Origin: a virus
Taxonomy: Duplodnaviria > Caudoviricetes
IMG/VR virus record: IMGVR_UViG_3300037420_002479
Span: 1-50,965 of that record
Strand: one strand, 5' to 3'
Length of the DNA stretch: 50,965 nucleotides
Of the stretch, positions 25,501 to 43,225 are shown one piece after another. The notes beneath the pieces were generated by a model. It searched no databases. It was not told the DNA's origin and saw only the letters and a program-made list of their open reading frames with translations. The number at the start of each line of letters is the position of its first letter. Positions within the stretch are counted from its first letter, which is position 1. Made by a program: the position numbers and the translations under genes.

Positions 25501-28500
25501 CCATTGCAAGCGGCACGTCTTGAGGCTGAGCTTGCATCGAGAAGCATTGGGTCAGGTGCAACAATTCAAGGGTTGACTAGCGATCGGGATATTGCGATCG
25601 TGGGTCGGGCGCAGAGCAATGCTGAGAAGTTCGATCAAAAAGCAGCCCGAATTCAGCGTAGTCAGGACAAAGTATTTGCCAAGCAGGTTGATCCGCTTCA
25701 GGGCGGTGGTGAGGATGCAGCATCACGGCTCAAGGGCACGATCGCGAAGGAAGCGGGCGACTATGCTAAGGCGGCGAATGAAAGCCTCAAGGCACTTGGC
25801 GTCAATCTTCCAGGCATTGGTAAAGCGTTGTCAGGATTGTTCTCAGGTGGAGCATCTGATGGCTTTAGCAAGATCAATGGTGGCTTAAAGTTCCTCGCTC
25901 AGAATGCAGCGATCGCGATTAAGGGATTTGTCGCGTTCCAGGTTCTATCTACTGTTGTGCCTGCTATTCAGCAGTTTGCAACCGAATCAGTTAACGCAGC
26001 AATCAAGTTAGATAACCTTAAGACCGCCCTCAGTTTTGGCTCAGGTGGGGCGAGCAATGCTGTCAAAGATTTAGCATTCGTTCGAGGCGAGGCAACACGG
26101 TTAGGGGTGCCGCTGTCTTCCCTGCAAGATGGATTCGTGAAGCTCTCGGCGTCTACCAAGGGCACCTCAAGTGCTGGGCAAACCACGAAAGATTTGATTA
26201 CGGGGTTAGCTCAGGCGTCTACCACCTTGGGGTTGAGTGCTGAAGAGTCGGGCGGAGCAATTCTGGCGTTGTCTCAAATCGCCAGCAAGGGTTCCGTCCA
26301 AGCCGAAGAATTGCGGGGTCAGCTCGGTGAGCGAATTCCAGGGGCTTTTGGCATTGCGGCTAGAGCGATGGGTGTTACCGAGGGGCAATTAAATAAGCTC
26401 TTAGAAACGGGTTCAGTCACGGCGGATGAGTTTTTGCCGAAGCTCGGAAGGCAGTTGCAGATCGAATTTGCGGGTAGCGCCGAATCTGCCTCAAAGAACG
26501 TTCAATCGTCCTTTTATCGGCTGGGCAATTCGTTTCAGCAGTTACAGGAAAAGACTGGAAAGGTGTTTACACCGAATACCTTTGCAGTTGATGGGGCGGC
26601 AAAAGGGATTGATGCTCTTGGTAATAGCCTAGGCGTTGTCATTCCTTCCGTCATCACGTTTGGCTTAGTGTTGGGCGTTCCGCTTCTAGCTCCATTGTTT
26701 GAAGCCGTGACGGGCATGGGTAGAGCGAAGATAGCATTGGATGCTTTGGGGAAAGGCTTTAACGCAGTTAAAGGCAATATTGGCAGTCTTGCGCTAAAAG
26801 CCGGAATTTCGACGATCGCAACTCTTGGTGCAATCGAAGCGGGTCGAACGATCGGGGAAGTTTTCAGCCTGGACGAGGAAGGCAAGCAGTTTGAGGATCT
26901 TGGAAATAAAGGGCAGCAGAATCTAGAGCGGATTGCAGAAGCGGCGAAACGGGCGAAGGGTGAAATCGATAAGGTTTCTGAGCCGAAGAAGTCCACGTCT
27001 AAAGGCTTTGATTTTACCCTCGGCTTAGCAAGCGCTACAGGGCTAGATCAAACGGGTTTTTCGCTCAAATCTGACGATCTGATCAAGCTTAACAACAAGT
27101 CTTCGATCTCTGGATTTATTCCAGGCTTCAAACCATTTGCAGATTTCGCTGGAAGATTCAGCGATCCAATTGCGCAGATTTCATCACGACTCACAGGAGG
27201 ACGGTTTGAATTCAGACCTGGAACCACTGTTGAAGAATTGCAGCAACAGCGTGACCAAATCAGTTTCAACCGCTTTCTTGACCAAGGAAACAATTTAGCC
27301 CAGCAAGCGTTTAGCGGTCAGATTGATGTCACGGGCAAAGATGGCAAGCGTCAGCAAGTCGATATTGGCACGTCGCTGAAAGACCTTAAGGCAACTGACG
27401 ATCGTATTCAACAACTTCGCAACGAACGAGGTCAAGTTGCCTCACAACCCAAGGCAGATAAGGTTCGTGTCGGGAGGATTGATGATGAGATTCAGAGGCT
27501 TACGACGGAACGGGCACAAAAAGCATCTCCGCTATTAGAACTGCAAGCCTCAATTCAATCAAAAATTAGCGACGATCAAAACCTACTGAAAGATGACAAG
27601 CTGTCAGGATCTAGAAAAGATTCGGTAAGAAGCGAAATTCAGGGCTTGGAGAACGCTCAAGCATTGTTGAATCGCCTGCAAAATCGCTTTGAAACTGCTG
27701 CTGATACGGTTTCAGATTTTAAGGCGGCACTCAACGCTATGAACGTGGAGCTAGAGCAGGCGAAGCGAAACGCAGACCTAAAGTTCAGTATTGATACCAC
27801 GGGTGATATCAAAGCTCAAATAGAGAACTTCGGTAGCGACATCAACGCAAGTATCAAGGCTCCAGTTCAAGCCGCAATTCGAGAGGCAGAGAGATCTCAA
27901 GCTCAACTAGAAGATAGTCGTGCGGCAATTGAAAGGGCTGAGAAGAAGGCTCAAAAGCCAGGTGTTAAGTCGGCTTTAGACAATATTCGCACCTCAACAG
28001 GTCAGTCGATTTCGCTTGATTCAAGCGTTAAAGAGTTGGAGGATGCGAAAGCGGCGTCTGGTCAGGACGAAGCTAAGAAAAAGCTGATTGATGAATTAAT
28101 CGATCGGAAGCGGGCACTCGATCAAGAATCTGAGCTAGAGCAAAAAGCTTCAACAGATCGACTTAATGTTCGTAAGGCTGAAGAACAGGCGAAACTGGCT
28201 TTGATTCAAAAAGCTTCAGCAGAGCGTGAGTCGCAGATTAAACGTGACTCCAACACAGCCCAAATTGGGTTGCTTCAGAAACAAAAAGCTGGAAACACCT
28301 ATGAATCTGATATCCAGGTTGAGAATGCGAAGCAGACGCTCTCGAAAGGTCAAGCTGAACTGGACAGCACCAAGCAACAGTTAGATGCGATCGAGTCTGC
28401 CTACGCTGCCAATCAAATTTCTGCTGAAGAGTATGAGAAGCAACGCAGGGAAATCGGCGACCGCATCAGCGATCAGGAAGTTCAAAATGCTCAGAATGAG

Positions 28501-30234
28501 GTTGCCTTAGTCAAAGCAACCGAGCAGGCGAAATTATCTGAACTCGATCGGGCGGCTCGTAAGCGTGAAGCCTCTATCAAACAAAATGACTCACGGGCTA
28601 CCGCATCACTTGTCGGAGACAAAACGAACGGTTTAGTTTCCGACGATGTATTCTCAATTGCCCAAGCCAAAAACTCACTCACCACGACTAATGCCCAACA
28701 GTCCAACGTTCAAGCCCAGTTAGACGAGATTGAGCAGGCTTACGCCCGTGGGATTGTCAAAAAAGAGGAATACGAAAAACGATCGCAGGATTTGACCAAT
28801 AGCCTTGCTGATTTATCTGTGCAGAAAGCGCAGAACGAACTCGCTCTGAGAGAAGCGATCGACAAAAAAGCGATTGAATCTCAGAAGCGGTTGTTAACGG
28901 GCACTGGGTTGGATCAGGGGTTGCTTGGGAACCAAGGGCAAGCTGCCCTGATTGGTATCGATTTAGCGGTGTCTCAGAAGCGACTGGGCAAGCAAGAAAC
29001 CGAAGCAAGTAGTCTTCAGCAGCAGTTAACCGAAGCGAGCGGGGCGGTGAATGCAGGCGGAGATATCTTTGCTCAATTTGATAATGCCAAGAAGGTTGGT
29101 AGCGCGAAGGAGATTGAAGAGAGGCTGAACCGTATCACCGCCAGTTCTAGCGAGGAACGGACTAAGATTCGGGAGCTGGAACTGCAACGGGATCTTAAAC
29201 TGATTCAAGCTCGTGCTGAAGCCGAGGAGCGAGAACTAGATCGAAAGAAATCGGCTTTGGATTCTGAATTGAAGTTGAGCCAAGCGATCGCGGATTCTCG
29301 CCAGAGTCAATTGAAAATTGGTATCGATCGTAACGGCGAATCGGTTGACGCCTTCAAACAGCTTCAGGGTAAAAATGCCGGATATCAACTGAGTAAAGTT
29401 CTGAAGGATCAGTTGACTGAAGCAGGCTTTAATACCTCAAATACCCAACAAGGGGTGATTGACGCTCTGCAAAACAAACAGGCACTGGAGGCTGAAGCTG
29501 ACAGAGAAAAAGTAGCGGCGTTGTTGCAGCAACAGGCTCTAGAGCGAGAATCAGTGAAGCTGGGTTTACAGAAAGAGCAAATTAGCGCTCGGACTGCATT
29601 AAATGAAGCGAAGCGAGTCAAGGCACTGGCGAAACTGAATCTTGCTGAGGCTCAAGGGGGACTGGCTAAGGCGCGGCGTTCTGGCAACGCAGACGAGATT
29701 CAATCGGCTCAAGAGCAGCTTAAATTTGCTCAAGAGGCAGTGGGACTGGCAGGGGAGAATAAGGGGTTAGCTGAACTCAACGTGCAGTCCGTTGACAAGC
29801 GGGTTCAGAATGAGCTTGCAGCAAGCGATTTTAGACAGGCACAGCAGCGCTCTGAACTGGATGCTCAGAATCAAGCTGCTTACCGGGCACGTCGCCGTGA
29901 AGCTGCTTCGACTGCCGACGAAGTTAAATTTACAGGTCAGCTTAATTTCGCTAACGTCGCACCAAGCGCTGTTCTGCAAGCTCCTGAAACGACTGGGCTA
30001 CCGTCCATTGTTCCGACCGTGACGCCCAACACGAATCAGGTAAGCCAAACAGTCAGCACAGCGGCTTCAACGACAAACAATGCCGATGTAGTCGCCAAGT
30101 TGGAACAACTGTATACCGGGATCATTGAGTTGGCGAATAAGCCTCGTTCTCTCACCTTCAACACAGCTCAACCTGTGGACGATTATGCGAAATTCATGAA
30201 TGATGCCGCAGGCTCTAGCTTGCGTTCTCAGTAA
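19585..30234 (+). CDS. Tape measure protein, 3549 aa, multidomain
   Basis: Tape-measure domain (ALSQIASKGSVQAEELRGQLGERIPGA), long coiled coils, two HExxH regions. Confidence 0.92.
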   Translation: MTEIAGTLGIELVLLRDGFKRDLQALQSLKGGQIALQAVLDTRLLRQQINNLSQLKPTIQAQVAITNLNQVESQLKTLTRDRRIRVGIELDGAGLDRLEARLGQLGNRSVRVGIAVDDSAIDRLNGKLNALSDRVVRVGVAIDESGLTNLEKRLGQFSNKSFRVTAQVDDRQLTALNKHLDLKQKHFTQVNNYFKSSPLTPRVDFSGLDALDRRLNDFKNRSIDIKANIADVRQSISQLKQELSGIEIPVTVRTANGVASSATQTISPKIDSSSIESAITKALDNSFKGFEKNLEGAFKKVGKGNILGGLGDILTAPLKLATGAIGSVFSGVGLGVGQQISKDLGKGISEGIDAQLAPIIGSFRLVGRELASSLVKELVDSLGQDATLVQGVIQDLVGKDNILVESGAVRSRQKQQQQKNTVEATRFFQNEAESANVSQLQAERQKLGGQFAAVQELKANTAQKTEAAANKLGAGKVKQNIEQASAQLKQNQETAATLNKQINSEIGGIESARKSLSQLKSSGTADASQIAEVESGIAQKTAKLSQLQSELGTTTSSSKQIAERITRLTDSLAEINRTAESYFREEVERITEIEDKLSVAQRKLEQKLQPFEAIESLGKIRTPESIGAEVQARKQNISGLQGKQSQLRASAKVDSTAIDELRQARNQELQVPDALQDKDKIQSIERRIIQIQERQAKRKALYNDIGKAIAQEETQLRSLDAQSAQPIAVQARASGLNASLSQLAQDEAELNRLAQEALAKGDEARARRLLAGKKQAQEDQQALRSKLALLGVAPAEVKKTAAKPAETRPADQSKALPASLQSILEETAALSGVEIPKGKAPRLVVSDSIQGTGQYDSDTNTVAVSSQVAKQAFQGKLTEDMVETFVHEFRHAVQSAFGQIDALTQGSATPLLQPTAEELANAPIVRGRTLAQRIEGSAANVAERNPNVSRDRTEKPARLLEADAYTFAARNTSQVFQKVGKDAAIADTLQLSGIGGQKIRDAYKSLQSVVGEVGSTAKAAGLNIAKELNQEVADIAQIGGRLKPLIAKLGELDVLPADEIRQVQQQFEVELAEIEQAKSRLRGVLANAQQDRAIDVAVQNPLDSTVDPEALQGFIERKIAASSQGAVNPKYQIADPFEPPKSLQKRAQEFGQSASNAAGKAKNFIFNPDREVTIDVDKLSNFAQKAGGVARGGIETGKNVASAVQSVATSQPVQAVLGATGGAVKALGAVAKTSYQLASGLESIALDMIPLGRTIKGVTKQLVIPAAGFAAATHLLPGGAIAAEGLSHLVGGAITPLTQAAGGAASASASSLIAQAIPQTATLFGHTVPNVLAPAAAPITSAVTGAIQGLSASVGEMAVQAGTVILGGKLLQGTVGKAGEAALKSALPQESNTRALPAASTRALPPVREKSGTVAVTANAVSPQVEIAPTFEQFTKPQLLAATRKLGIQGTNTKTSKDDLVERLKGFRNQSQVDQVLTQVQSEIGRDGKPIAGFNPAAEKAALKQFQKAEKDLHRKLEQLAKASGKKRETLLNEILSGIDEQTAAIDAAKAQNFSGETVKQLSGIQGRLRNAGNNNPALVDARNERITTIRSAAVDSQNARIRGLARVAIEEAEPATATLGTTLKEGFRKLTNFAAKQFEVQPQPTIKGTLGAIAKSPKARDLATDLAVNGAGFAASQLGSQFGILPELTGDLGGALIARQLISRGRPSAKDLTGDLAGFAIGNTTAKIANAGLDALSGVVPGAGLLRALPFKGAIAASLTVPKVTKAAEQFQQSPIEGLARAQTPTGFTGLVDKFRSLLPNNERKLAQIQRNYESIYREIAAVSGAAFDPANIPKLSIDNKRLKQLGAQAYFEIEQNLITIDREIANALAKPANELSKYTDKLTGLIHEGRHSIQLDGGRLSIDQAAASGQLANGDKLSIDQRAQVEKSVDVARKQGASAQQLESVRKLETDAYAFEGNAGQIVSKASRPDPLQAARLEAELASRSIGSGATIQGLTSDRDIAIVGRAQSNAEKFDQKAARIQRSQDKVFAKQVDPLQGGGEDAASRLKGTIAKEAGDYAKAANESLKALGVNLPGIGKALSGLFSGGASDGFSKINGGLKFLAQNAAIAIKGFVAFQVLSTVVPAIQQFATESVNAAIKLDNLKTALSFGSGGASNAVKDLAFVRGEATRLGVPLSSLQDGFVKLSASTKGTSSAGQTTKDLITGLAQASTTLGLSAEESGGAILALSQIASKGSVQAEELRGQLGERIPGAFGIAARAMGVTEGQLNKLLETGSVTADEFLPKLGRQLQIEFAGSAESASKNVQSSFYRLGNSFQQLQEKTGKVFTPNTFAVDGAAKGIDALGNSLGVVIPSVITFGLVLGVPLLAPLFEAVTGMGRAKIALDALGKGFNAVKGNIGSLALKAGISTIATLGAIEAGRTIGEVFSLDEEGKQFEDLGNKGQQNLERIAEAAKRAKGEIDKVSEPKKSTSKGFDFTLGLASATGLDQTGFSLKSDDLIKLNNKSSISGFIPGFKPFADFAGRFSDPIAQISSRLTGGRFEFRPGTTVEELQQQRDQISFNRFLDQGNNLAQQAFSGQIDVTGKDGKRQQVDIGTSLKDLKATDDRIQQLRNERGQVASQPKADKVRVGRIDDEIQRLTTERAQKASPLLELQASIQSKISDDQNLLKDDKLSGSRKDSVRSEIQGLENAQALLNRLQNRFETAADTVSDFKAALNAMNVELEQAKRNADLKFSIDTTGDIKAQIENFGSDINASIKAPVQAAIREAERSQAQLEDSRAAIERAEKKAQKPGVKSALDNIRTSTGQSISLDSSVKELEDAKAASGQDEAKKKLIDELIDRKRALDQESELEQKASTDRLNVRKAEEQAKLALIQKASAERESQIKRDSNTAQIGLLQKQKAGNTYESDIQVENAKQTLSKGQAELDSTKQQLDAIESAYAANQISAEEYEKQRREIGDRISDQEVQNAQNEVALVKATEQAKLSELDRAARKREASIKQNDSRATASLVGDKTNGLVSDDVFSIAQAKNSLTTTNAQQSNVQAQLDEIEQAYARGIVKKEEYEKRSQDLTNSLADLSVQKAQNELALREAIDKKAIESQKRLLTGTGLDQGLLGNQGQAALIGIDLAVSQKRLGKQETEASSLQQQLTEASGAVNAGGDIFAQFDNAKKVGSAKEIEERLNRITASSSEERTKIRELELQRDLKLIQARAEAEERELDRKKSALDSELKLSQAIADSRQSQLKIGIDRNGESVDAFKQLQGKNAGYQLSKVLKDQLTEAGFNTSNTQQGVIDALQNKQALEAEADREKVAALLQQQALERESVKLGLQKEQISARTALNEAKRVKALAKLNLAEAQGGLAKARRSGNADEIQSAQEQLKFAQEAVGLAGENKGLAELNVQSVDKRVQNELAASDFRQAQQRSELDAQNQAAYRARRREAASTADEVKFTGQLNFANVAPSAVLQAPETTGLPSIVPTVTPNTNQVSQTVSTAASTTNNADVVAKLEQLYTGIIELANKPRSLTFNTAQPVDDYAKFMNDAAGSSLRSQ

Positions 30235-30322
30235 GTCAGGAGTTCCAGACTACTGATGACTGAATGAGTGCCAAAATTTTACAATAGGGGTGTATAAGTA
30301 GAACGGTTTGCCTAGAGTAACC

Positions 30323-30880
30323 ATGTCAATTGAGTTTCGGTTTCATCCAGAAAAAGCTGTTGAAGCCGCAGCGACACTTCTAAAGCTGCATGGTAAGCCT
30401 ATGAAATATCTAGGCTTACTTAAGATGCTTTACATTGCTGACCGAATTGCATTAGAACGCATAGAGCAACCAATTACAGGTGATCACTACGTATCAATGA
30501 AGTATGGTCCTGTTCTTAGCGGTGTCTATGACCTGATCAAGGGGAAGCCGGTTGATAATGCCTTGCCTCTCTGGTCTAAATTCATTTCTCATCGTCACAA
30601 TAATTACGTTCGTCTACTGAATGATCCAGGCAACGAAGAACTCTGTGAAGAGGAGGAAGAAATTCTTCGGGGGGTTTACAAAATCTTTGGTCATATTAAC
30701 CCTTTTACTGTTGCCGATTGGACTCACGGTCTTCCAGAGTGGGAAGACCCTGGTAAGTCTATGAACCCAATTGCAGTAGAAGACGTTCTCAAGAACTTGG
30801 GTAAAAGTGACGAGGAAATTGAGGAAATTGAGCAAGAAGCCCTACGAGAAGCGTATTTAGATAAAGTTTTGCATGTCTAG
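30323..30880 (+). CDS. Panacea (DUF4065/SocA/GepA) domain antitoxin-like protein
   Basis: LLKMLYIADR...ITGDHYVSMKYGPV...WTH.LPEW. Confidence 0.85.
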   Translation: MSIEFRFHPEKAVEAAATLLKLHGKPMKYLGLLKMLYIADRIALERIEQPITGDHYVSMKYGPVLSGVYDLIKGKPVDNALPLWSKFISHRHNNYVRLLNDPGNEELCEEEEEILRGVYKIFGHINPFTVADWTHGLPEWEDPGKSMNPIAVEDVLKNLGKSDEEIEEIEQEALREAYLDKVLHV

Positions 30881-31262
30881 CATCACCATTAATTTGGGGG
30901 ATGCTTTTCTGATAGATACACCTCCCACTGGCGAACATCTCTATATCGCCATTGCCCAAACTTCTGCAAGCAACTACCTGTTTGTCAATGTAACTACTCG
31001 GAGAAATAATTCCGAAACTTCTTGCATTCTTCAACCGGGTCCAGATGTGCCCTGTTTTATTACTCGTGAGTCTGTCATCGCCTACCAATTTGCTCGCGAT
31101 ATGGACGCTGCCCAATTAGCCTCATTGATTACTGTTGGCAGTCCTATTCCAAAAGGGCGTTGTTCGATGGCTGTTCTTGCACAGATTCAGCAGGGTGGTC
31201 TAGCCTCCAAACGCTTAACGAACAAGCACAAGACAGCTCTTAAATCCTTCTTAGGGGTTTGA
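30873..31262 (+). CDS. Putative toxin partner of the Panacea protein (PemK/MazF-like topology suspected)
   Basis: Overlaps the antitoxin stop; GDAFLI...HLYIAI...VNVTT...FITRESVI pattern. Confidence 0.5.
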   Translation: MSSITINLGDAFLIDTPPTGEHLYIAIAQTSASNYLFVNVTTRRNNSETSCILQPGPDVPCFITRESVIAYQFARDMDAAQLASLITVGSPIPKGRCSMAVLAQIQQGGLASKRLTNKHKTALKSFLGV

Positions 31263-31302
31263 TTTCAGCGCTAAACACCGCAGACCCTTCTTTCCGCTCT
31301 CA

Positions 31303-31388
31303 GTAGGAATTCTGGGGCAGTTTGAGCGCTGCCCTGTATGACCCGCACTTTAGTCCTCAAGCTCGTTGCAGCGCGCCGTTCAGTTTAA
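31303..31388 (+). pseudogene. Truncated duplicate of the promoter and first 7 codons (MTRTLVL) of the distal tail gene at 43557
   Basis: gtaggaattctggggcagtttgagcgctgc...atgacccgcactttagt is nearly identical to 43521-43573. Confidence 0.85.
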
Positions 31389-31686
31389 TTTGCGCTTGGG
31401 CAATGCCTTGGTCCTGTTAGTTTGCACGAACTTTGCCCCACTTTAGAGAGGAGTCCTTCATTTTTGACCTTATGCAGAAAGCTACTACCTATCTGAGGCG
31501 AATTCGCATTAGTTCCATCATCGGATACTTGTGTTGATGGGCACGTCGCCCGCTTTCAGACATGAAGTCTTTGTAGATTGTTTATCATAACCAGACTAGG
31601 CTGGTATCGAAGATGTATACTTTGAACGATTAAGTCATCAACGTAAAATTTTAAGCTTGATTTACAGGGGTTGGAGGGAGGTTTGA

Positions 31687-32418
31687 TTGAGTATTAATCA
31701 AGCAGCAATTGATGAAGTGTTTCCAAGCAACCCACTTCGAGATGTTACCTTTGAAGTTCGCTTTCCGTTCAGCTTGCGGGTAAACGGAGCAATTTACGAC
31801 ATTCAGTCGGAGCTTGAGAGTGACTACCCAGTGGTTAGCCGGAAAATGCTAGAAACCGACGAAGATGACTCTAAAAATCTTTACATCTTCACAAATCGAG
31901 AAGCAAGCCAACAAGTTATTGTCAGTGAGGACTACCTCACAATTTCTTTCAACTATTACAAAAGCTTTGAGTACTTCCTTCAAGAGATACTGAAATGTAC
32001 TAAGTTAGTTTTTCACTCTTCTTCGATTAAGGCGTTGACGAGGATTGGGCTTCGATACGTTAACTATTTTAGCCACCCAGAAGCAGTCGATGATGCAGCA
32101 TGGCTTAAGAAGATTGTCAAACCCTTGATCAGCTCTGAGCGGATACAGATGGCACAAACAAAAAGATTTGTGGCAGAAGCTTTATTTAAGAAGCCAAATT
32201 GCTTCTTGAGCAGTCGCACTGTCTACTATCAAGGAGATGAAACAGATGAAGATAAGGAGAGTTTTTACGTTCTAGATATTGATGCTTATACCGAGCAATG
32301 TGTAGCGTCTGAAGAACTAGAAGCAATACTGCATAAGCTTCATCACGAAATTCAGTTAGAGTTTCTGGCAAACATCACTGACGAGTATAAAAAAGAGATG
32401 CGAAGAAAGAGTAAGTAG
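31687..32418 (+). CDS. TIGR04255 family protein
   Basis: NPLRDVTFEVRF, Y.SFE.F, RIGLRYVN, YVLDIDAY motifs. Confidence 0.8.
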   Translation: MSINQAAIDEVFPSNPLRDVTFEVRFPFSLRVNGAIYDIQSELESDYPVVSRKMLETDEDDSKNLYIFTNREASQQVIVSEDYLTISFNYYKSFEYFLQEILKCTKLVFHSSSIKALTRIGLRYVNYFSHPEAVDDAAWLKKIVKPLISSERIQMAQTKRFVAEALFKKPNCFLSSRTVYYQGDETDEDKESFYVLDIDAYTEQCVASEELEAILHKLHHEIQLEFLANITDEYKKEMRRKSK

Positions 32419-32421
32419 ATT

Positions 32422-33201
32422 ATGGCTCGTAAAGAAAATCTTTTAGCTAAACCGAACGCTAGACAGATAGCTATTGAGCGAACAGGAGAAAGTTCAGTCG
32501 ATGCGATTATTGAAGAAAAGCTGCATACGAAGCGAAGTGGGCGAGCGCCTATCCTGCTTCCAAAACTCCCCCTAGAACCGCTAAGCGGTTCTACGACTGA
32601 TGCCGTTTCTAGAACTAGATTTTTTCAGCAGCTAGCAAAAAACTCGGCAAATTCAGATATAAATACTGAATTAACTAATTCAATTGCTGCGAGTCTTGGC
32701 AGGATTGAAGGCTACAGATTAAGGCGAACTGAAGATGAACAGCGTGAGCGAGATCAAAGACTACGTGCTTATCGCGAAGCTTTTCGCCAGGATGCTTGGA
32801 GAATTTACTGCTATCCCCCAGAAGCGCAATCGATAAACAAAAAAATGATTGCATTGATAGACGACGCCCTCGCAATGGCTATACAGGAACAATTGTCGCG
32901 TTCTGACACAGCCGCTATTGAATCAGTCGAAATCTTACGACTAATTCAGCGGCAACCGATGACTATGCAGAACATTGCGGATAGCTTCAAAGTCTCGATT
33001 GAAGATGTTTATCCACTTGTCGGAAAACTTCTTAGTCGCGGCTTTATTGACAAACTGGATGGAAATTTCTTACGAAAGCTCTTTCCATTCATTGGAGCTA
33101 ATCGTCGTCGTGTAACTATAATGACAGATCCTAACACCCACTTTACATTGACGCTGAAGGGGTATTTCAAACTGAATCCTGTTATTACAATTAACAATTG
33201 A
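32422..33201 (+). CDS. Hypothetical protein with C-terminal winged-helix-like region
   Basis: ILRLIQRQPMTMQNIADSFKVSIEDVYPLVGKLLSRGFI. Confidence 0.6.
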   Translation: MARKENLLAKPNARQIAIERTGESSVDAIIEEKLHTKRSGRAPILLPKLPLEPLSGSTTDAVSRTRFFQQLAKNSANSDINTELTNSIAASLGRIEGYRLRRTEDEQRERDQRLRAYREAFRQDAWRIYCYPPEAQSINKKMIALIDDALAMAIQEQLSRSDTAAIESVEILRLIQRQPMTMQNIADSFKVSIEDVYPLVGKLLSRGFIDKLDGNFLRKLFPFIGANRRRVTIMTDPNTHFTLTLKGYFKLNPVITINN

Positions 33202-33202
33202 T

Positions 33203-33922
33203 GTGCTGTTTGCGCTGATAAGTCTAATAAAGGATTGGGCACCCTGGGTTCTGCTTGCCTCGTTTCCATCAGTGCTCAATTTGGTAATTGCTGTTCAAGA
33301 CCTGCAACGAGAAAGCAAACGATTACCTTTCTTTAACCCGTGCGCCTGTTGGGGTTTCTGGATTTTTTGCCTTGTGCAGCTACTGCTACCTGCAATTGCA
33401 TTTTGGCTGTTCTTTTCAATTGACAAAAAGCCGTCAATCGACCTTGTACTTTATATTAAAGCTGGTCTGTTTGGTGTTGGCTTCAATGCCTTCGTTAATA
33501 ACTCAGTACAAGTTGGACCGATTGGGTTTAATGTCAAGGCTTTCTATGATGTGTTTATCGGAATCGCGATTGAGATGATTCTGGCAAAAGAGGCGAGCCG
33601 CACCGCTATCTTCTGGGCAACGCTGACAAGTGAGTTTAGTAACAGTGATACCAAGTTTGAACCAGCGCTGGATTTTTTGACCCAATACGTTAAAACAAGT
33701 GCCGCTCTCGACAGCTCGTTAAAGAGCGATGCCCGTACTAGCATAATGCAGCAGCACGAAGAACTAATAAAGACTGCGAAAAGAAAGAAGTTAGCACCTC
33801 AGAAAGCTGATGCAATTGTCAATGCAATAAAGCAAATTATTAGGCGATGCGATTTGCCTCATGCCTTGCATGAATTTGGCTGCACACAAACTTTAGACAA
33901 ATGCTTTAAGAAAAAACCTTAG
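33203..33922 (+). CDS. Hypothetical membrane protein (N-terminal TM helices plus soluble C-terminus)
   Basis: 3-4 hydrophobic segments; coupled to upstream ORF. Confidence 0.65.
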   Translation: MLFALISLIKDWAPWVLLASFPSVLNLVIAVQDLQRESKRLPFFNPCACWGFWIFCLVQLLLPAIAFWLFFSIDKKPSIDLVLYIKAGLFGVGFNAFVNNSVQVGPIGFNVKAFYDVFIGIAIEMILAKEASRTAIFWATLTSEFSNSDTKFEPALDFLTQYVKTSAALDSSLKSDARTSIMQQHEELIKTAKRKKLAPQKADAIVNAIKQIIRRCDLPHALHEFGCTQTLDKCFKKKP

Positions 33923-33987
33923 TGTTCTTAAGGAGCAGTTTCAGAAAATGTCAAGACAACGCTTATGAATCCTCTGCCAACCCGCTC

Positions 33988-34287
33988 TTAGTCCTCCCAA
34001 ACCAACTCTCGCCAGTTGGGAGGAATTAAGCCTTTTCTGAGTGCCTTGAAGACAAGTCCTTGATGACTTCGATCTGCTCTGAGTGTATGGCAGATCACGC
34101 ACAGCGTTCTTAAGTTTTCATCGATATTCATTCCTCCTTTGCTTAAAGGTGTTTTGTGATCAATGTGGCAGTCGTTGAGATTGACGGGTGTGTTGCAGTG
34201 TTGGCACTGACCACGATCGCGGTCGTAGATGCGCTGTCTTGTCAGTTTCCAGATTTCTCTGGGTTGTCTTCTGTGTTTCCTTGCCAT
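33988..34287 (-). CDS. HNH endonuclease (99 aa); start ATG lies inside the last array tract
   Basis: CQHC...HIDHKTPLSKGGMN...NLRTLCVICH. Confidence 0.9.
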   Translation of the reverse strand: MARKHRRQPREIWKLTRQRIYDRDRGQCQHCNTPVNLNDCHIDHKTPLSKGGMNIDENLRTLCVICHTLRADRSHQGLVFKALRKGLIPPNWRELVWED

Positions 34288-34615
34288 GCCTTGCCGTACC
34301 CTAACTGACCGCGCCGAGACCCACCGCGCCAAGACTCACCACACCTGACCAGACCTGACCCGGACGCACCAAGCCTAGTTGCGACTGATAGCCGCTTTAA
34401 TATGAGTTCTGTATAATCCTTGCCTTGCCAGAACTCGCCTCACCGCACCTGAACACGCCTTGACCCGCCTTACCGAGCCGCACCATGCCTGATTGCGACT
34501 GATAGTCGCTTTAATATGAGTTCTGTATAATCCTTGCCTTGCCTTGCCAGAACTCACCGCGCCAGAACTTAACGCACCGCGACTCGCCGTACCGCGCCTT
34601 GCCACGCCAGACCGC
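34278..34615 (-). ncRNA. Putative guide-RNA array: three (GKY-NN)n tracts with 16, 14 and 19 internal NN units, separated by two 41-nt constant repeats
   Basis: Strict 5-nt periodicity; constant repeats 34490-34530 and 34376-34416 are 38/41 identical with a GCGAC-TATCA-GTCGC hairpin; NN strings decode to TMP segments. Confidence 0.85.
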
Positions 34616-34621
34616 GTGAAC

Positions 34622-35239
34622 CTATGCCGCTTTCTTTAGCTGTAGTTCAGCCACATCAAACGACACAAGTTCAAACCTACCATAGCCAACGGAACGCCCG
34701 TCAGCGATGCCCGTAAATCGACCCGCATCAATGACAGCAGCTTCCATCTCACCGCGAGAGACGATCGTTTTATCCCACTGAATATGAAAGCTGGCTGTCC
34801 ATCCAGACGATGCGCCGATACGATAGCGGAGATTTCTTGCCCGTGTGCTTGGGTTTCTTACGCCCTGAACATCCAGAAACACAGGCAGTTCAGGATTTTG
34901 CTCAGGGATCTCTGGAACTCGCAACACCTCACCGTCGCGCTCAATGAAGATAAAATCTTCTTCAACTTGCAATGTTGCAGAAATGAACGGCTGCAATGTG
35001 CCACGTTTACGAGGGGTGTGTTTTGCTCCATCTCTAATGGCTGCAAACAAATAGCTCGACTTGACGTACAGCCTACGATCGCTAGTCATCAAAACGGTTT
35101 TCTTCCATTCTTCAGGATCGTGCCCTGCTACCCCTGTTTTCTCTTGCTTTTCCAGTGGTAGTGCATCGGGTCCGAAATGATGCCATAGCATGGCTCGAAT
35201 GCCAGAAATTTGAATGTTAGCTCTGAGAATATTTGCCAT
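34622..35239 (-). CDS. Stand-alone Cas7/RAMP-like protein (putative guide-RNA-binding effector)
   Basis: N-terminal beta strand and loop, LYVKSSYLFAAIRDGA helix, C-terminal Gly-rich loop GIADGRSVGYGRF; directly upstream of the array; no other cas genes. Confidence 0.75.
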   Translation of the reverse strand: MANILRANIQISGIRAMLWHHFGPDALPLEKQEKTGVAGHDPEEWKKTVLMTSDRRLYVKSSYLFAAIRDGAKHTPRKRGTLQPFISATLQVEEDFIFIERDGEVLRVPEIPEQNPELPVFLDVQGVRNPSTRARNLRYRIGASSGWTASFHIQWDKTIVSRGEMEAAVIDAGRFTGIADGRSVGYGRFELVSFDVAELQLKKAA

Positions 35240-35261
35240 GATGTCTCCTGAAATATTGTGT

Positions 35262-35723
35262 TTAACCCAACTGATACACGCAAATCTGCTCTGCCCTCTC
35301 TAGCCCCAGCTCTTGCAGAATGGAGTCTGCGATCCGATGAGGAAATTGAGTGAGGGAGAGTTCAACCTGATTTGCAAACACACCTAAAAAGCGAGATCGT
35401 CCAAAGGTGACAACTGCCTCCTCAATCAAGGCGTCCAGATTGCGAATGATAGGAATCAACAGATCGATCTCATCACCGCCACCCTGTAAACCGTCTTGAA
35501 CGTAGCGGATTAGAGGAGCGGCTTCAGGAGGTAAACAGGAGTGTTTCAGAACTAACTCTGTGTCAATGAGATCAAGACAGTCTTTCGCGAGTTCTCTAGC
35601 CGCTGTTTCTGCCTGCTCTACGGTAGACACAGCGTATTCTTTGCCGTTGATGAGGAAGCACGTTAAGCCGTAGAAATCATCTTGAAGCTTTCGGATTTCC
35701 GTTCTAGTTGCTGTAGTTACCAT
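35262..35723 (-). CDS. Hypothetical protein in the Cas7-like operon
   Basis: 153-aa ORF co-oriented 22 nt upstream of the RAMP gene. Confidence 0.65.
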   Translation of the reverse strand: MVTTATRTEIRKLQDDFYGLTCFLINGKEYAVSTVEQAETAARELAKDCLDLIDTELVLKHSCLPPEAAPLIRYVQDGLQGGGDEIDLLIPIIRNLDALIEEAVVTFGRSRFLGVFANQVELSLTQFPHRIADSILQELGLERAEQICVYQLG

Positions 35724-35795
35724 GACTTGCCCTAGTTCCAGGATGGGGATGTAGCGATCTGGACAGTCACCCGTTTGGGTGACTGTCGTAAGGCT

Positions 35796-36110
35796 TTAAG
35801 CGATCGGGCGAACTTTCTTTAGGGCTAACTCAAACGCGCGGCGATTGTAGGCGTGTGTTGAATTGCTGTCTGTGCAATGAAACACAGCATCCTCTACCAA
35901 GGACTCGATCGAGAGTTCAAGCCAGGTAATGAGAGCTTTCTGGATATCCTCACGACGATATTCAGTTCCTTGCTCAAAGGCAAGATTCGACTGAATCACG
36001 AGGGCAGATTGAAAAAGTTGAGTCTGGATAGCGTCGTTGTCTAGGTAAAGGCTGAAAGTATCCGATTCAACAGACTGAACTTGTGGCTTAGATTCAAGAG
36101 TTGTTAACAT
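35796..36110 (-). CDS. Hypothetical protein, first gene of the leftward operon
   Basis: 104-aa ORF downstream of the leftward promoter. Confidence 0.65.
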   Translation of the reverse strand: MLTTLESKPQVQSVESDTFSLYLDNDAIQTQLFQSALVIQSNLAFEQGTEYRREDIQKALITWLELSIESLVEDAVFHCTDSNSTHAYNRRAFELALKKVRPIA

Positions 36111-36187
36111 TGTTATTGGTTCAATAAAGGACTTTCAAGAAAGGCACTGTCTCTGATTGGCGTTGGTGACAGTGCCTTTCTGTATTC

Positions 36188-36256
36188 AATCTAGCTAAAA
36201 CGTACAACATTGTCAATAAGTAAATAATTGACAATCCGTACAACAATTAATATGAT
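36188..36256. promoter_or_regulatory. Back-to-back sigma70 promoters with CGTACAACA boxes in both spacers
   Basis: + strand TTGACA(36228)-17-TATGAT(36251); - strand TTGACA(36216)-17-TAGATT(36193); CGTACAACA at 36201 and 36237. Confidence 0.8.
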
Positions 36257-36289
36257 GACCACAAGTTGATAAAGTTTAAGAGGTCAAAA

Positions 36290-36637
36290 ATGTACGGGAT
36301 TCTTAGTCCGCCGATTAACGTGGTTCCTCTGTCCAAGCTTAGGCAAGGTCTTTCGCGCTATCGTCGTCAAGTTCAAGGCGGCGAGGTGGTTCCTGTGGAC
36401 TACTACAAAGACCGTATAGGCTACTTAATTCCGCTTACCATTGCCGAAACGCTACAGTTCTCGTCAGAGCGGGAGTTGAGCCTAATTGAGTTCAGAGACG
36501 ACCTTAATTCAGCTTGGGAGTCGATCGATTCTGGTACTGATTGCATTTGGTTGACTTACCACGGTGAGCGACGTATCGCCTTTGTGTCAACCAGGGTCTA
36601 TCAGCCTGAAGAGGAGAGTACGGACAGCCAGCAATAA
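36290..36637 (+). CDS. Tandem Phd/YefM-like DNA-binding protein (putative repressor)
   Basis: Two repeats of the Phd-like pattern (VPLSKLRQGL...; LSLIEFRDDL...LTYHGERRIAFV). Confidence 0.55.
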   Translation: MYGILSPPINVVPLSKLRQGLSRYRRQVQGGEVVPVDYYKDRIGYLIPLTIAETLQFSSERELSLIEFRDDLNSAWESIDSGTDCIWLTYHGERRIAFVSTRVYQPEEESTDSQQ

Positions 36638-36693
36638 ATTCCTAATCGCAAAGCTAGAGGTTTATTGCTGAATAAGGTATCAGAAGCAATTAA

Positions 36694-37227
36694 TCAGTTG
36701 ACAGGCTCATAAGTGAGAACGCAGAACGGATTAGAGGAGAACTCTTCTCGCTTAGACACAATTGGATGACTCTTGGCGGTCGGAGTGTCACCTACTGCTT
36801 GCTGAATCTGTCTTACCGACTCCATCACTTGAGCACCTTTTCGGTTGAAATTGTCCCAAGTTCGCTTATCCGACTCAAACAACTCATTCGAGTTCCAGAC
36901 TTTAAACTTCCAGGTGTGGTCAACAGTTACCCCACCGATACTTTTTTCTTGAATCTTCACAGCTACGAGATGATACTTCGCTTCTGAATCTCGTCCGTCC
37001 GTCTTCGTTTCTTTTCCGATAACCTCCCACTTCTCCACTGCCTGCAAAGGCTGCTCTACTTTGGGGGACTCGTTCGCATGACATCCAAACTCTTTCTGCT
37101 TCTCGCTCTGCCCACTTTTCACAGTCTCCAGATATGCATTCACAACGCTCTCCGGACTTGACGCATTCTGACATCCGAACAGGGATGATACAACGATCGC
37201 GCACAGCGCAAATCGAACCAATTTCAT
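36694..37227 (-). CDS. Lipoprotein
   Basis: Signal peptide with lipobox LFGC. Confidence 0.75.
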   Translation of the reverse strand: MKLVRFALCAIVVSSLFGCQNASSPESVVNAYLETVKSGQSEKQKEFGCHANESPKVEQPLQAVEKWEVIGKETKTDGRDSEAKYHLVAVKIQEKSIGGVTVDHTWKFKVWNSNELFESDKRTWDNFNRKGAQVMESVRQIQQAVGDTPTAKSHPIVSKREEFSSNPFCVLTYEPVN

Positions 37228-37350
37228 TGTGTTTTCTCCAAGGGGTCGGCTTTAAAGTCCCCAAAAATCAAACAGCAATCGCTCTCCCCTTGGAAGTTAG
37301 AACGATCGCTGCTGTACCCCACCTACCGTTTTACCTAGAGGTGAAGCCTT

Positions 37351-38118
37351 ATGGAATTCTCGCACGAGCGAGCCATCGCTCTAGTCCGCTCAACTGAAGA
37401 TTTCCCGGTAGATTTTGATGACGCTTGGCAATGGATCGGCTACTCCACCAAGCAGATGGCTCGAAAGAAGCTAAACAACAATTTCGAGCACGGAGTAGAC
37501 TTTTTAATCAAGGGATTAAAAAGCTCTCAGGGAGGACGATCTAGCGAACATATTGTTCTTACGATCGACTGCTTTAAGTCTCTTGGCATGATGGCAGGTA
37601 CTCAGAAAGGGAAAGAGATTCGACACCACTTTCTAGACTGCGAACGTCAGCTTAAAGAAGTACTGTTATCGACCGCTCCCGACCCCATCGCCACAGCCTT
37701 CAGCATTGCAGATCACTTCCGGTCATTGCTTGCCAACGCAGGCATCGACCCCGCGATCGCCACTCTCATCGGCTTGAAATACATCGAGCGTCAGCTTCCC
37801 CAGCTAAAGCCAGAAGTTGAGGAGAGCCGCGAATTGATCGGCAAGCATCACGCCTCAGACAGTCACTATCTCACCCCAACTGAATTGGGACAGCAAACGG
37901 GCAAGAAAGCGAAAGACATCAACATCGCCCTAGAGCTTGCAGGATTTCAGGTCAAGAAATCAGACGGCAAGCACACTCGATGGGATCTGACCGACACAGG
38001 TAAGAACTACGGCAAAGTATTTCTCGCTGCTGCCCAAACAAGTCGCTGGTCAGGGGGGCAAGTGAAATGGAAGCCTGACGTATTGCAAATTCTAGGACTG
38101 GAGGTAAGCCATGTCTAA
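37351..38118 (+). CDS. Phage antirepressor-like protein
   Basis: FPVDFDDAWQWIGY...LTIDCFKSLGMM...GKEIRHHFLDCE N-domain; LTPTELG...W.LT..G C-domain; GAGG RBS. Confidence 0.78.
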   Translation: MEFSHERAIALVRSTEDFPVDFDDAWQWIGYSTKQMARKKLNNNFEHGVDFLIKGLKSSQGGRSSEHIVLTIDCFKSLGMMAGTQKGKEIRHHFLDCERQLKEVLLSTAPDPIATAFSIADHFRSLLANAGIDPAIATLIGLKYIERQLPQLKPEVEESRELIGKHHASDSHYLTPTELGQQTGKKAKDINIALELAGFQVKKSDGKHTRWDLTDTGKNYGKVFLAAAQTSRWSGGQVKWKPDVLQILGLEVSHV

Positions 38119-38392
38119 TGTACCTGTAAATTCAAAGCTTCAGGCATTTGAGCAGAAACTAAAACAACTCATTGAGAATCCCGACCCCAAGCCCAAATAC
38201 GAACTCTGGCAAATCGTTCGCTGGAAAATAGCTGATTACAAGGAGGAAGATCAAGGCAGAATTGCAGGCTTCTACTTCATATCGGTTGGAATTGCCTTTC
38301 AAGATGCCTCTGAGCCGGGTTGGTACTACCACATTGAGGACGGCTACTGTCATGCCATTGTCCACGAAGACAGCATTGTAGGAGCAGTATAA
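38111..38392 (+). CDS. Hypothetical protein (SH3-like, DUF1392-like)
   Basis: PKYELWQIV...G.IAG...GWYY pattern shared with the next ORF. Confidence 0.55.
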   Translation: MSNVPVNSKLQAFEQKLKQLIENPDPKPKYELWQIVRWKIADYKEEDQGRIAGFYFISVGIAFQDASEPGWYYHIEDGYCHAIVHEDSIVGAV

Positions 38393-38442
38393 GGACGCTT
38401 GCTGCGTCTTCAGTTTTCATCCACTAACCATAGGTAAAAGCC

Positions 38443-39231
38443 ATGACTTTAAGCGCCACTGTTTCAGCAGTAAAGCTACAAATTCCGATCGCCCGATCGT
38501 CCGATATCCCGGCTCCAAAATTCGCCTTTAATCAGCGTGTCCAGTGCAAACACGGCGAAGGCATCATTCGGGGACTGGAGTATATGAATCAAGAAACGGC
38601 TGACATTCACAACTTTGATGGCGTTGGCTGGTGGTACATCATTTTGCTCGATGAGGACAACCCAGCGTACCAACAGACCCCAACGGTGAACAGCGCTGAA
38701 GATGAGATCACATCATTGCAAACCCCCAAGAGTGACGTGAAAGCCTTTTATTTATGGCATCTCAGCCGCTCCTACCGGGGCTATGTCGTGGTTCCAATCC
38801 AAGAAGGCGATACCTATCGAGTGGGCGTTTTTAATCCGGTTGGAGACGCTTTAAACCTGCCGACAGAGCAGGTAGAGCGGACACAAAGGGTATGGCTTCA
38901 AGGGCAAGATGCCATTGACCAAGACATTGAGGCATCCACTTGGCACAGTGATCCGCGTCTGATTGCTCATCTCACCTCTGCTGCTTACATTCGGGGTCAA
39001 CGTCGCTTCGATACCCTGAAATATGAACTACACAGCCTGATTGAGCGTTGCACGTTGCCAGAAGTGCTGGATCGGCTAGCGGAGTCGGTGTTTGAGCAAT
39101 CTCGCTGTGAGAAAGATGAGCCGACAAAACGAGCCTGGATGAACCTGGAAATTCAGATCCAGAAGGCAACAGAAGTGGCACTGTTAGCGGTGAATCTCAA
39201 GGCTGAACAACGTCTGGATTTATGGGGGTAA
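38443..39231 (+). CDS. Hypothetical protein with DUF1392-like N-terminus
   Basis: PKFAFNQRV...GIIRGLEY...GWWY. Confidence 0.6.
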   Translation: MTLSATVSAVKLQIPIARSSDIPAPKFAFNQRVQCKHGEGIIRGLEYMNQETADIHNFDGVGWWYIILLDEDNPAYQQTPTVNSAEDEITSLQTPKSDVKAFYLWHLSRSYRGYVVVPIQEGDTYRVGVFNPVGDALNLPTEQVERTQRVWLQGQDAIDQDIEASTWHSDPRLIAHLTSAAYIRGQRRFDTLKYELHSLIERCTLPEVLDRLAESVFEQSRCEKDEPTKRAWMNLEIQIQKATEVALLAVNLKAEQRLDLWG

Positions 39232-39263
39232 TTCAATAAATTCAGCTTGGGAACGTAGATCGT

Positions 39264-39296
39264 AAAGAAGGGTAGCTCTAGGGTTGCCCTTCTTTT
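39264..39296 (+). terminator. Rho-independent terminator
   Basis: AAAGAAGGGTAGC / GTTGCCCTTCTTTT stem. Confidence 0.7.
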
Positions 39297-39401
39297 GATC
39301 ACATTCCTAACCTGTAATCAAATTATCAACCTAGTCGACTACACTAGTTGACATAGGGTTTCCGATTGCATTCGGAAGCAACGCTCTGGTCAAGCGGATT
39401 T

Positions 39402-39992
39402 ATGTCTATCAACACCCGGAAAAAGCTGACTTTCGAGGAATATTTGTCCTATGATGACGGGACAGATAATCGCTATGAGTTGGTAGATGGGGAGTTAGTT
39501 GAGTTGCCACCGGAATCCGAGCCGAACAGCGCGATCGTAGACTACCTCTTTCTCAAGCTGGTAGAGATGGGAACTCCGTTTCGCCTGATTAAGCGCCACA
39601 CTTGTGAAATTCAAGTTCCCGTTCTGCAATTGGGCGATGCTCAGAATCGATTCCCCGATTTAGTTGTGTTGAGACACGAGCATCTAGCTCTGACTCGAAA
39701 ACGACTCACGATTAAGCTAGACATGCCTCCACCTCAGCTAGTGGTTGAAGTGGTAAGTCCAGGGCAAACCAACCGCGATCGAGACTATAAAAGCAAGCGT
39801 GAGCAGTATCAGCGCGTGGGGATTCCTGAGTATTGGATTATCGATCCCGAACATCAGGCGGTCACGGTCTTAAAGCTTGAAGTCAGCCAGTATATTGAAA
39901 TTGGCAGTTTTAAGGGTAGCGATCCCATTATTTCCGAGGCTTTCCCTCAACTGATGCTGACGCCAGCAGAAATCTTTGCAGAGGCAGATTAA
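39402..39992 (+). CDS. Uma2 (DUF820) family PD-(D/E)xK protein
   Basis: RYELVDGEL, RFPDLVV, LVVEVVSPG, RDY..KR..Y...GIPEYWIIDP. Confidence 0.92.
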   Translation: MSINTRKKLTFEEYLSYDDGTDNRYELVDGELVELPPESEPNSAIVDYLFLKLVEMGTPFRLIKRHTCEIQVPVLQLGDAQNRFPDLVVLRHEHLALTRKRLTIKLDMPPPQLVVEVVSPGQTNRDRDYKSKREQYQRVGIPEYWIIDPEHQAVTVLKLEVSQYIEIGSFKGSDPIISEAFPQLMLTPAEIFAEAD

Positions 39993-40008
39993 TTACTCCT
40001 TAGTGCCT

Positions 40009-40242
40009 TCAGGGTAGTGAATTTGCCCACTCTCTTGCTGATTCAGGGGAGTCGATAGTCCTTCCTTCCTGAATCCATTCTTCGACTAGTTCCTCTATCC
40101 TATGCTTCTTGCCATATTCTCTGGCAATTTCGACGTACTGATTCACCGAGTCCCTGGTCATACGACTTTGAATTGAATATTCAACAGCATTTAAAACCTT
40201 CTGGCGATCTAAGTGCCGTTGAGGATATGAGTTTGTGGGCAT
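40009..40242 (-). CDS. Hypothetical protein downstream of an inverted TMP end
   Basis: 77-aa ORF with AGGAG RBS. Confidence 0.6.
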   Translation of the reverse strand: MPTNSYPQRHLDRQKVLNAVEYSIQSRMTRDSVNQYVEIAREYGKKHRIEELVEEWIQEGRTIDSPESAREWANSLP

Positions 40243-40278
40243 AAAGCAACTCCTACTTCACAGTGTCCAACACTAACA

Positions 40279-40331
40279 CTAAGTCCCTCTCAGTGAAGCG
40301 CCCGCTGCATCATTCATAAACTTAGCGTAGT
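40279..40331 (-). pseudogene. Inverted third copy of the extreme TMP 3' end (YAKFMNDAAGASLRGT*)
   Basis: Matches YAKFMNDAAGSSLRSQ* (30234) and YARFMNDAAGQSLRSN* (42554). Confidence 0.85.
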
Positions 40332-40850
40332 GTACGAACCCACCGGGGTAAAGCATTGAGGTCGATCGATTCTTTCAAATACGCTTATACTACTGGCTTA
40401 AATCTTGATTCTTGGAGTTGTACAGTGCCTTTAGACGGACAAGTCAGACCTAGCGAGGATTTAGAGCGTCATCTACAAAGCTCAATTCCGCAAGTCCAAC
40501 GGAAATTTCAAGCTCGTGCAACGGAGCTAAACCTGAAATACTGTGAGTTTGATGACTCGTCCCCAGTAGAGGTGGTTCGCAATTCTGTCCTGCCTGGGGG
40601 CATTCAATCCTTCACTGCAACGATCAAATTAAATGTCAGTACGTTCGATGGGAGCCAGCCGAATCGAGGCGTCGAGGAGATCGAGGACTGGTTCGACAAT
40701 TTCCTTTGCGCTTGGCTCTCGTTGCGGAACGGTTTGAGTTCTCAATCGAGCTTGCCGGAATTGAGGAGAGAGCGGGAGTTAAAGCAGTGGAATCAGGTTC
40801 CCACTTGGACTGTTCAACTGCGACGGCAATTCGATTTGAGATCGCCCTAA

Positions 40851-42554: not shown

Positions 42555-42555
42555 G

Positions 42556-42587
42556 TCGTACAAGTGCGAATATTCGCACTTGTACGA
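42556..42587. repeat. Perfect 32-bp palindrome TCGTACAAGTGCGAATATTCGCACTTGTACGA
   Basis: Self reverse-complementary; lies between convergent stops. Confidence 0.9.
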
Positions 42588-42893
42588 TTATGCCGGATCA
42601 ATCACAAGCAACCCCAACTCTTTTATCTTGTCTGGAACATTTTCCGCTTCCAGCCCGCAATAGTAGTACTGTCGATCGCGCAAATTCGCCAGATAAAAGC
42701 CGTCATGCCCCCCATTGAGGCGAAATAGCTGTGTTACGACATCCCACCTTGAGAGTCCAAAATTTGTCTCAAGGTCATCAACATTGCAATTTTCCCCATT
42801 CAGCCGATAAATGGCAGACGCACGATGAAAGAGCCACTTCCCGGACCTGCACTCAAAAAATCGATAGTGAAACGGAAGCGTAATCCTGCACAT
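42588..42893 (-). CDS. Hypothetical protein
   Basis: 101-aa ORF; start uncertain. Confidence 0.55.
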   Translation of the reverse strand: MCRITLPFHYRFFECRSGKWLFHRASAIYRLNGENCNVDDLETNFGLSRWDVVTQLFRLNGGHDGFYLANLRDRQYYYCGLEAENVPDKIKELGLLVIDPA

Positions 42894-43192: not shown

Positions 43193-43225
43193 GCGTCTAT
43201 TATAACTCTATGTGTACATAGAGTG

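Follow-up and report, generated by a model that had tools for sequence, protein, structure and literature searches.

The window (the whole 50,965-nucleotide stretch of viral DNA that was analysed) carries a VIPR cassette, which consists of a Vipr gene, three GGY/NN guide tracts, and an HNH gene. It is highly probable that this is a VIPR system with the tape measure genes (TMPs) of related phages as its target, and this part of the reading is far more secure than the steps of cleavage and homing. We propose that the cassette encodes an RNA-guided HNH nuclease that cleaves and excludes kin phages and spreads by intronless homing, a reading to which we give a probability of about 0.55. Since the guides match kin better than their carrier and an orphan piece of the TMP gene starts inside a guide target, close relatives are likely to be cut, and the cassette would spread in the manner of free-standing homing endonucleases. 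The direct support is the anatomy of the cassette, its code, the kin matches that exceed the self matches, the excess divergence of the self sites, and the start of the orphan inside the target of the first guide.

The vipr gene is on the minus strand at 34622-35239 and encodes a single-RRM RAMP protein of 205 aa; the ORF has 938 homologues. An earlier note on this DNA had spoken of a RAMP gene co-transcribed with the guide RNA, and the RAMP gene was borne out. A profile of the Vipr family (121 sequences) matched PDB entry 36pp, annotated "SUSP1 Vipr protein", with E 1.3e-8 and matched no other entry below E 0.3. The AF2 model of the protein (pLDDT 89) found the Csm3/Cas7 RAMPs as its best folds (Foldseek E 7e-9; VIA Z 11.9, rmsd 3.3-4.3). 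Residues H17, R138, D177, and R179 of SUSP1 Vipr correspond to H20, R140, D180, and R182 in the window, each of them at least 90% conserved, and W178 pairs with G181. A single-protein scan of viral_contigs with Vipr found no relative.

Adjacent to this gene and on the same strand, positions 34276-34615 hold three tracts of G[G/T]Y-NN pentamers, with 16-21 units in each tract and 40-nt tails between them. Many of the units are GTY rather than GGY. Guide tract 1 (34530-34615) ends in a constant run of AA units and is followed by conserved tail 1 (34492-34531), and guide tract 2 (34416-34491) is followed by conserved tail 2 (34378-34417). The tails are copies of one repeat (D2) that is kept in a sister prophage, and each can form a 6-bp hairpin (34495-34509 and 34381-34395); the fold z of about -2 (-2.0 for tail 1) comes from three copies only. 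The tail pattern had 0 matches in viral_contigs. Guide tract 3 (34276-34377) has no tail copy, and its final units overlap the start codon of the predicted HNH accessory gene (33988-34287, minus strand), which encodes 99 aa with CxxC, DH, N, and H motifs (Pfam HNH, E 1e-9; also PHROG HNH families). The last units of tract 3 thus make up the HNH start codon (34276-34287), an overlap also seen in the sister prophage and in another Vipr locus, L178.

The record also carries portal, capsid, and TMP genes, indicating a phage or provirus setting. No cas family was found among 50 ORF translations scanned against Pfam, and a CRISPR reading was ruled out, there being neither cas genes nor a repeat-spacer array. 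Rfam gave no hammerhead or other family in 30000-44000, and PADLOC gave weak HNH-domain matches only. We counted 75 tracts of the YNNGG type with variable NN in 38 of the 46 loci examined, window and sister included. In three related cyanobacterial cassettes (L176, L264, and L265) the units are almost all GTY and not GGY. The DNA of the cassette itself is present in only 2 of 401 genomes of the phylum, so the close clade comes down to two full cassettes. VIPR types III-V have been assigned predicted enzymes, and HNH is among the accessory proteins of types II, III, and VII (10.64898/2026.04.26.720920); our guess is that the window cassette would be of type III.

The cassette sits within 13 kb of cargo (30235-43500) between the TMP gene and the next tail gene. 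The cargo includes a Panacea/SocA-like antitoxin gene (30308-30880) with a partner ORF, a Phd-like gene, an AntA antirepressor gene, and a Uma2 nuclease gene, and in kin phages this spot is occupied by other cargo. Two divergent sequences at 36188-36256 resemble sigma-70 promoters (10/12 and 11/12, consensus matches only), and the leftward one precedes a run of genes ending in vipr, the array, and HNH.

The TMP gene (19585-30234, plus strand) encodes 3549 aa with a Pfam TMP_3 domain at aa 2135-2324, and its closest homologues are in cyanobacterial prophages. The earlier note had read the NN dinucleotides as a gapped code in which one base is skipped after each dinucleotide, and its dinucleotide strings, coordinates, and counts were all reproduced. 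Tract 1 decodes to 28504-28545 with 10/14 dinucleotides and 23/28 bases, tract 2 to 26275-26313 with 10/13 and 21/26, and tract 3 to 26443-26490 with 7/16 and 21/32. The site of tract 2 encodes a conserved TMP_3 motif (Q-I/M-A-S-K-G-K-V-Q-A-E-E-L). All three sites are on the sense (plus) strand of TMP and in frame, with the skipped base at codon position 3. The pairing of the guides with the TMP template strand, which the note had also suggested, agrees with these sites and with the antiparallel gapped R-loop described in the accessible part of the structure preprint (10.64898/2026.04.26.720927). The sites lie 5.7-8.3 kb from the guide array, and each is the best or tied-best one-skip match of its tract on either strand of the window.

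The note had named TMP as the target of all three guides. When the order of the dinucleotides was shuffled, the observed score was reached in 0/1000 shuffles for tract 1, 2/1000 for tract 2, and 157/1000 for tract 3, so that on the own gene tracts 1 and 2 are beyond chance and the match of tract 3 alone is not. Skips of 0, 2, or 3 bases gave at most 20/28 for tract 1 and at most 18/26 for tract 2 anywhere in the window, and reversing the order of the units gave nothing comparable for either. For tract 3 a two-base skip reached 23/32 elsewhere in the window, against 21/32 with the one-base skip. In viral_contigs the exact pattern of tract 1 had 0 matches, and that of tract 2 was present in 28 viral contigs, which were not counted as natural targets because the motif is widely conserved.

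Tract 3 was rescued as a TMP guide by the relatives, whose TMP genes score 29/32 (G002:C69) and 28/32 (G489). The latter is a viral record that we found with back-translated patterns of the targets; it was chosen on sites 1 and 3 at the amino-acid level, and thus its scores are no blind test. Its three sites match the guides at 27/28, 24/26, and 28/32, together 79/86 read bases compared with 65/86 for the own gene (23/28, 21/26, and 21/32). Therefore the own TMP, which the note had taken as the target, is not the best one. Among 16 TMP genes compared at the DNA level, the best kin scores were 24/28 for tract 1, 25/26 for tract 2, and 29/32 for tract 3. A 15-unit pattern of tract 3 with at most 3 mismatches was present in one of 90 family genomes, in a TMP, and the reversed control was present in 0/90. 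We found no Vipr in G489, a record that is 82% complete. This phage lacks the 13-kb cargo region and has a single ORF between its TMP and the next tail gene.

The same preference was seen in protein comparisons. In a set of 120 TMP proteins, to which the own one belongs, tract 2 matched 13/13 codons in 10 proteins (own 12/13), tract 3 matched 15/16 and 14/16 in the two nearest proteins (own 12/16), and tract 1 matched 12/14 in the own protein and equally in one relative. With shuffled guides the maxima in this set were 10, 11, and 10 for the three tracts. These proteins were retrieved with the domain that carries sites 2 and 3, and site 1 is outside that domain. The possibility that the TMP matches are only the noise of a long, low-complexity gene is fed by the 157 of 1000 shuffles that equal tract 3 on the own gene, by the wide conservation of the tract 2 motif, and by the selection of some loci on that very motif. 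We regard it as negligible, given the shuffle results for tracts 1 and 2, the position of tract 1, which peaks at homologous codons even outside the retrieval region, and two more guides from a sister phage that match TMP in frame.

This sister cassette is in a prophage (G001:C115) whose Vipr is 90% identical to that of the window. The vipr-array-HNH order is kept, its two guides (Mc1 and Mc2) are different from those of the window, and the orientation of the cassette relative to TMP is reversed. Both guides decode in frame to TMP. Mc1 scores 27/28 in G002:C41 and 26/28 in G489 but 19/28 in its own carrier; the corresponding site in the window is at 26857-26898 (plus strand, 21/28). Mc2 scores 20/24 in the window, at 30169-30204 (plus strand), and 18/24 in the sister's own TMP. 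Thus TMP is the target of all 5 guides in the two close cassettes, and for every guide there is a relative with a higher score than the carrier.

The own sites appear to have changed away from the guides. Of the read positions at which the other sequences agree, the own TMP departs from the kin majority at 7/51 in sites 2 and 3, compared with 5/218 in the remainder of the domain (p=0.002). The same test was not significant in any of 6 kin (lowest p 0.23), and in G489 0/47 differed. Since kin match better and the read positions of the own gene have changed in excess, the self matches are best seen, at the level of sequence comparison, as escaped copies of the target. The note had described the code as blind to ordinary synonymous change. 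This holds for the wobble base, which is skipped, but Leu, Ser, and Arg can switch codon box, and such a switch is the sole synonymous change that is visible to the VIPR code. In a hand count of the Leu, Ser, and Arg codons in the three sites, the own gene was in the box not read by the guide at 8/9, with 2 of these codons common to most kin. Codon-box switches relative to the kin majority were found at 3/5 in the sites and 68/359 elsewhere, which is borderline (p=0.053). Sparing of self is not assured, because own sites 1 and 2 still match their guides at 82% and 81% and are above the 80% threshold that the VIPR paper uses for target calls, a level that no self match reaches in that paper (10.64898/2026.04.26.720920). 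These two matches, together with guides that all point to the carrier's own gene family, might be taken to mean that the system damps the prophage's own TMP or late tail operon during lysogeny. Such self-regulation is very unlikely, as divergence from the guides has gone faster in the own gene than in the sequence around it and some relative outscores the carrier for every one of the five guides of the two sister phages.

Evidence bearing on cleavage comes from gene remnants in the cargo. A start-less copy of the 3' part of TMP (aa 2982-3548) is present at 40853-42554 (plus strand) in an open frame, without the 5' part, and is 83% identical in amino acids and 75% in nucleotides to the intact gene. 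The start of the orphan falls at unit 9 of target 1, corresponding to 28527 in the intact gene, and the bases that precede it are unrelated. The note mentions neither this orphan nor the HNH gene. Over units 9-13 guide 1 matches 10/10 bases in the orphan compared with 8/10 in the intact gene. The orphan is 81% identical to the G489 protein, and the intact window copy is 76% identical to it. The three target sites make up 1.2% of the TMP gene. The coincidence has a chance probability of about 1%; it is a single event and was spotted after the fact. Nothing in 90 family genomes matched the ORF immediately to the left of the junction, and thus the junction could not be refined. The GC profile shows no sharp step there, and the one DNA sequencing run used, which may be the source run, covered only 34400-34536 and 42036-42585 at similar depth (37.6 and 36.6) and did not bridge the junction at 40853. 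A perfect 32-base palindrome (42556-42587) directly follows the orphan stop codon, and two further inverted repeats are at 17198-17233 and 39243-39314.

Smaller remnants were also found around the end of TMP. By sequence comparison, an inverted remnant of the last TMP codons in the window (40288-40331, minus strand) begins inside the site read by Mc2. In the sister prophage, a short TMP remnant that precedes the next tail gene starts at unit 7 of Mc2, and units 7-12 match 12/12 in this remnant and 9/12 in the intact gene of the same prophage. The two breakpoints fall at unlike guide units, 9 of 14 in target 1 and 7 of 12 in Mc2. Three other TMP remnants start outside guide sites, one in G002:C41 and two in the window: a piece with the last 3 TMP codons and the leader of the next tail gene (31279-31357, plus strand) and its second copy at 43518/43520-43576. 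These remnants point to the TMP end as an insertion hotspot, as judged from sequence, and the breakpoint coincidences at Mc2 weigh less for that reason. Furthermore, in G001:C115, G002:C69, and G002:C41 an antisense piece of 32-47 bases from the HNH 3' end abuts the TMP stop codon, and these pieces are relics of an earlier cassette at this position. No Vipr was found in the 20-kb stretches examined of G002:C69 and G002:C41.

These remnants bear on two further explanations. In one of them the cassette would have been inserted without guidance and the guides written afterwards from the junction, so that their adjacency would reflect acquisition and not homing. Guides acquired in this way would also yield adjacency and breakpoints inside targets, yet the cassette-free allele of G489 is intact and is matched over both halves of the site (27/28) and not as a chimeric junction, and sites 2 and 3 are about 2 kb from any junction. 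We consider this order of events unlikely. In the other, kin are excluded by silencing only: a Vipr filament would block transcription of the TMP of a superinfecting relative, HNH would be a helper, and the orphans would be chance products of the hotspot. Repression is the only activity shown for VIPR (10.64898/2026.04.26.720920), silencing accounts just as well for the better matches to kin and the escape of self, the starts of other TMP remnants lie away from guide sites, and distant loci have no excess of split sites. Silencing leaves unexplained why a 1.7-kb orphan starts inside target 1 and why guides prefer neighbours of the cassette to distant genes that are just as essential, and the HNH motifs are intact. 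Exclusion by silencing only is possible, and we hold it as a tentative second explanation.

The preference for adjacent genes was seen with 52 distinct tracts from 27 other Vipr loci, taken from viral and metagenome contigs in stretches of at least 6 kb. Within 1.5 kb of the arrays, the summed best in-frame one-skip score was 769 compared with 742.6 +/- 6.0 for shuffles (maximum 757). Beyond 1.5 kb there was no excess (787 compared with 783.0 +/- 6.1). The near-gene excess has a z of about 4.4-4.5 for codon positions 1-2; it is also present for positions 2-3 (z 3.2) and 3-1 (z 2.3), and thus the near-gene test cannot isolate the wobble phase. Skips of 0 and 2 on near genes gave z 0.0 and 0.3. 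The five best near matches are to the convergent neighbouring gene. Among them, a guide of L182 matches the final 12 codons of the gene that adjoins its cassette at 20/24 (0/500 shuffles), a guide of L010 matches the last 10 codons of a terminase at 17/24 (46/500 shuffles over the whole locus), and L002 has its match in a tail-completion gene.

The L182 cassette (10587-11171) has a vipr-guide-HNH-guide order and lies antisense inside the tail module. The end of the abutting gene, stop codon included, is spelled out by its second guide, and the copy in L182 departs from the guide through switches of Leu and Ser boxes and a different stop codon. The guide of L264 and L265 matches 17-18/24 at about 46270-46305 of the window (minus strand), near the end of a 774-aa tail gene (44039-46363). 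The position of this match is common to three kin phages and on the antisense strand, and the score is within the shuffle range (maximum 20).

Other comparisons across the family were negative. In the split-site test with perfect half-sites, 3 of 64 tracts had p<=0.05 compared with 3.2 expected. No orphan copy stood out in the seven Vipr loci inspected for them, and when 12 cyanobacterial vipr-HNH stretches of more distant kind were examined, none of their 11 tracts found a target within its own stretch (best p 0.32). We put forward a more general statement with about even confidence: Vipr-guide-HNH cassettes may be reprogrammable RNA-guided homing endonucleases that sit in virion gene clusters and direct their guides to the essential gene at their flank in relatives that lack the cassette. 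The cut would fall within the gapped target and leave orphan gene halves that start there, and the carriers would escape by amino-acid changes and by changes of the Leu, Ser, and Arg boxes.

For the window, cleavage and homing would proceed as follows. The cassette would be expressed while its carrier is spared. Each guide would be coated by Vipr, and the complex would read two of every three bases of the kin TMP, as established for SUSP1; filament assembly, one-skip DNA binding, and silencing are carried over by analogy from the SUSP1 papers. HNH would then be recruited and cut within the kin site. The outcome of repair would likely be either destruction of the rival or, with the carrier's DNA as template, replacement of the site by the altered, resistant allele, at times together with the cassette, by analogy with the T4 Seg/Mob endonucleases. 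The orphan would be the cut end of a sensitive relative that was joined to cassette-bearing DNA.

If this is true, VIPR has a role as a selfish element beside its published silencing of satellites, and the window offers natural evidence for DNA cutting by a VIPR accessory HNH, with a cut predicted about halfway along the target. There would be consequences, too, for the proposed route that leads from viral RAMPs to CRISPR and for compact PAM-free nucleases. What the accessory nucleases do, a point that the structure preprint leaves open, would become directly testable, since the protein has 205 aa, the nuclease 99 aa, and nature supplies three sets of guide, target, and escape. If only silencing holds, the cassette is an ordinary new member of VIPR with a clear self-escape.

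The gapped, wobble-skipping code that the note read is already in print. The VIPR preprint (bioRxiv, April 2026) describes GGY/NN guides, a one-base skip with wobble alignment, binding to either strand, and repression; for the characterised (type II) VIPR, repression is demonstrated, and cutting is not among its demonstrated activities (10.64898/2026.04.26.720920). The window and VIPR share a single RAMP gene beside GGY/NN tracts, a 3' tail (in the window, behind two of the three tracts), the one-base skip at the wobble position, a phage-borne setting, and targets in other phages, and HNH is named among VIPR accessory genes. For the vrRNA-targeting guides of published VIPRs, too, self scores below the non-self ones are reported (10.64898/2026.04.26.720920, 10.64898/2026.04.26.720927, 10.64898/2026.10.15.759431). 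The published natural targets are satellites, regulators of resident prophages, REP elements, and other VIPRs, with no self match of at least 80%. In contrast, all five guides of the two sister phages are directed at TMP, a gene that the carrier has itself, in the version found in kin; two self sites match at 81-82%, leftover gene pieces start inside targets, and many units are GTY. Thus the code was already known, and what is new is the targeting of kin TMP, the escape of self, and the remnants as proposed homing scars. We found no published description of an orphan TMP that starts inside a guide target, of a sister remnant that does likewise, or of an enrichment of guides for adjacent genes. 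The word homing has 0 occurrences in the main texts of the VIPR preprints; their data tables may list such targets, and most subscription journals were outside the search.

Two other kinds of element resemble the proposed homing cassette. In OMEGA/TnpB systems, RNA-guided cleavage of the element-free allele favours retention and spread of the element, but the accessible part of the source describes a contiguous guide derived from the flank, a single RuvC protein, a TAM, and a transposase (PMC13565253), and we saw no homology between these systems and the window cassette. Intronless homing endonucleases, in the available portions of two sources, cut a conserved gene that neighbours them, in the version carried by a relative, and differences in sequence set self apart (PMC2988022, PMC13565253). 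In the present case, a conserved TMP target is near the cassette and is present in G489 (79/86), in which no Vipr was found, and adjacency of guides and targets was found across the family. As far as those portions describe them, the T4-like Seg/Mob endonucleases are also intergenic nuclease cassettes with a target in a conserved neighbour gene of kin, up to kilobases away. They read their site with a protein domain, whereas in the window, where nuclease activity and mobility are predicted, exchangeable RNA guides, several to a cassette, would give the specificity.
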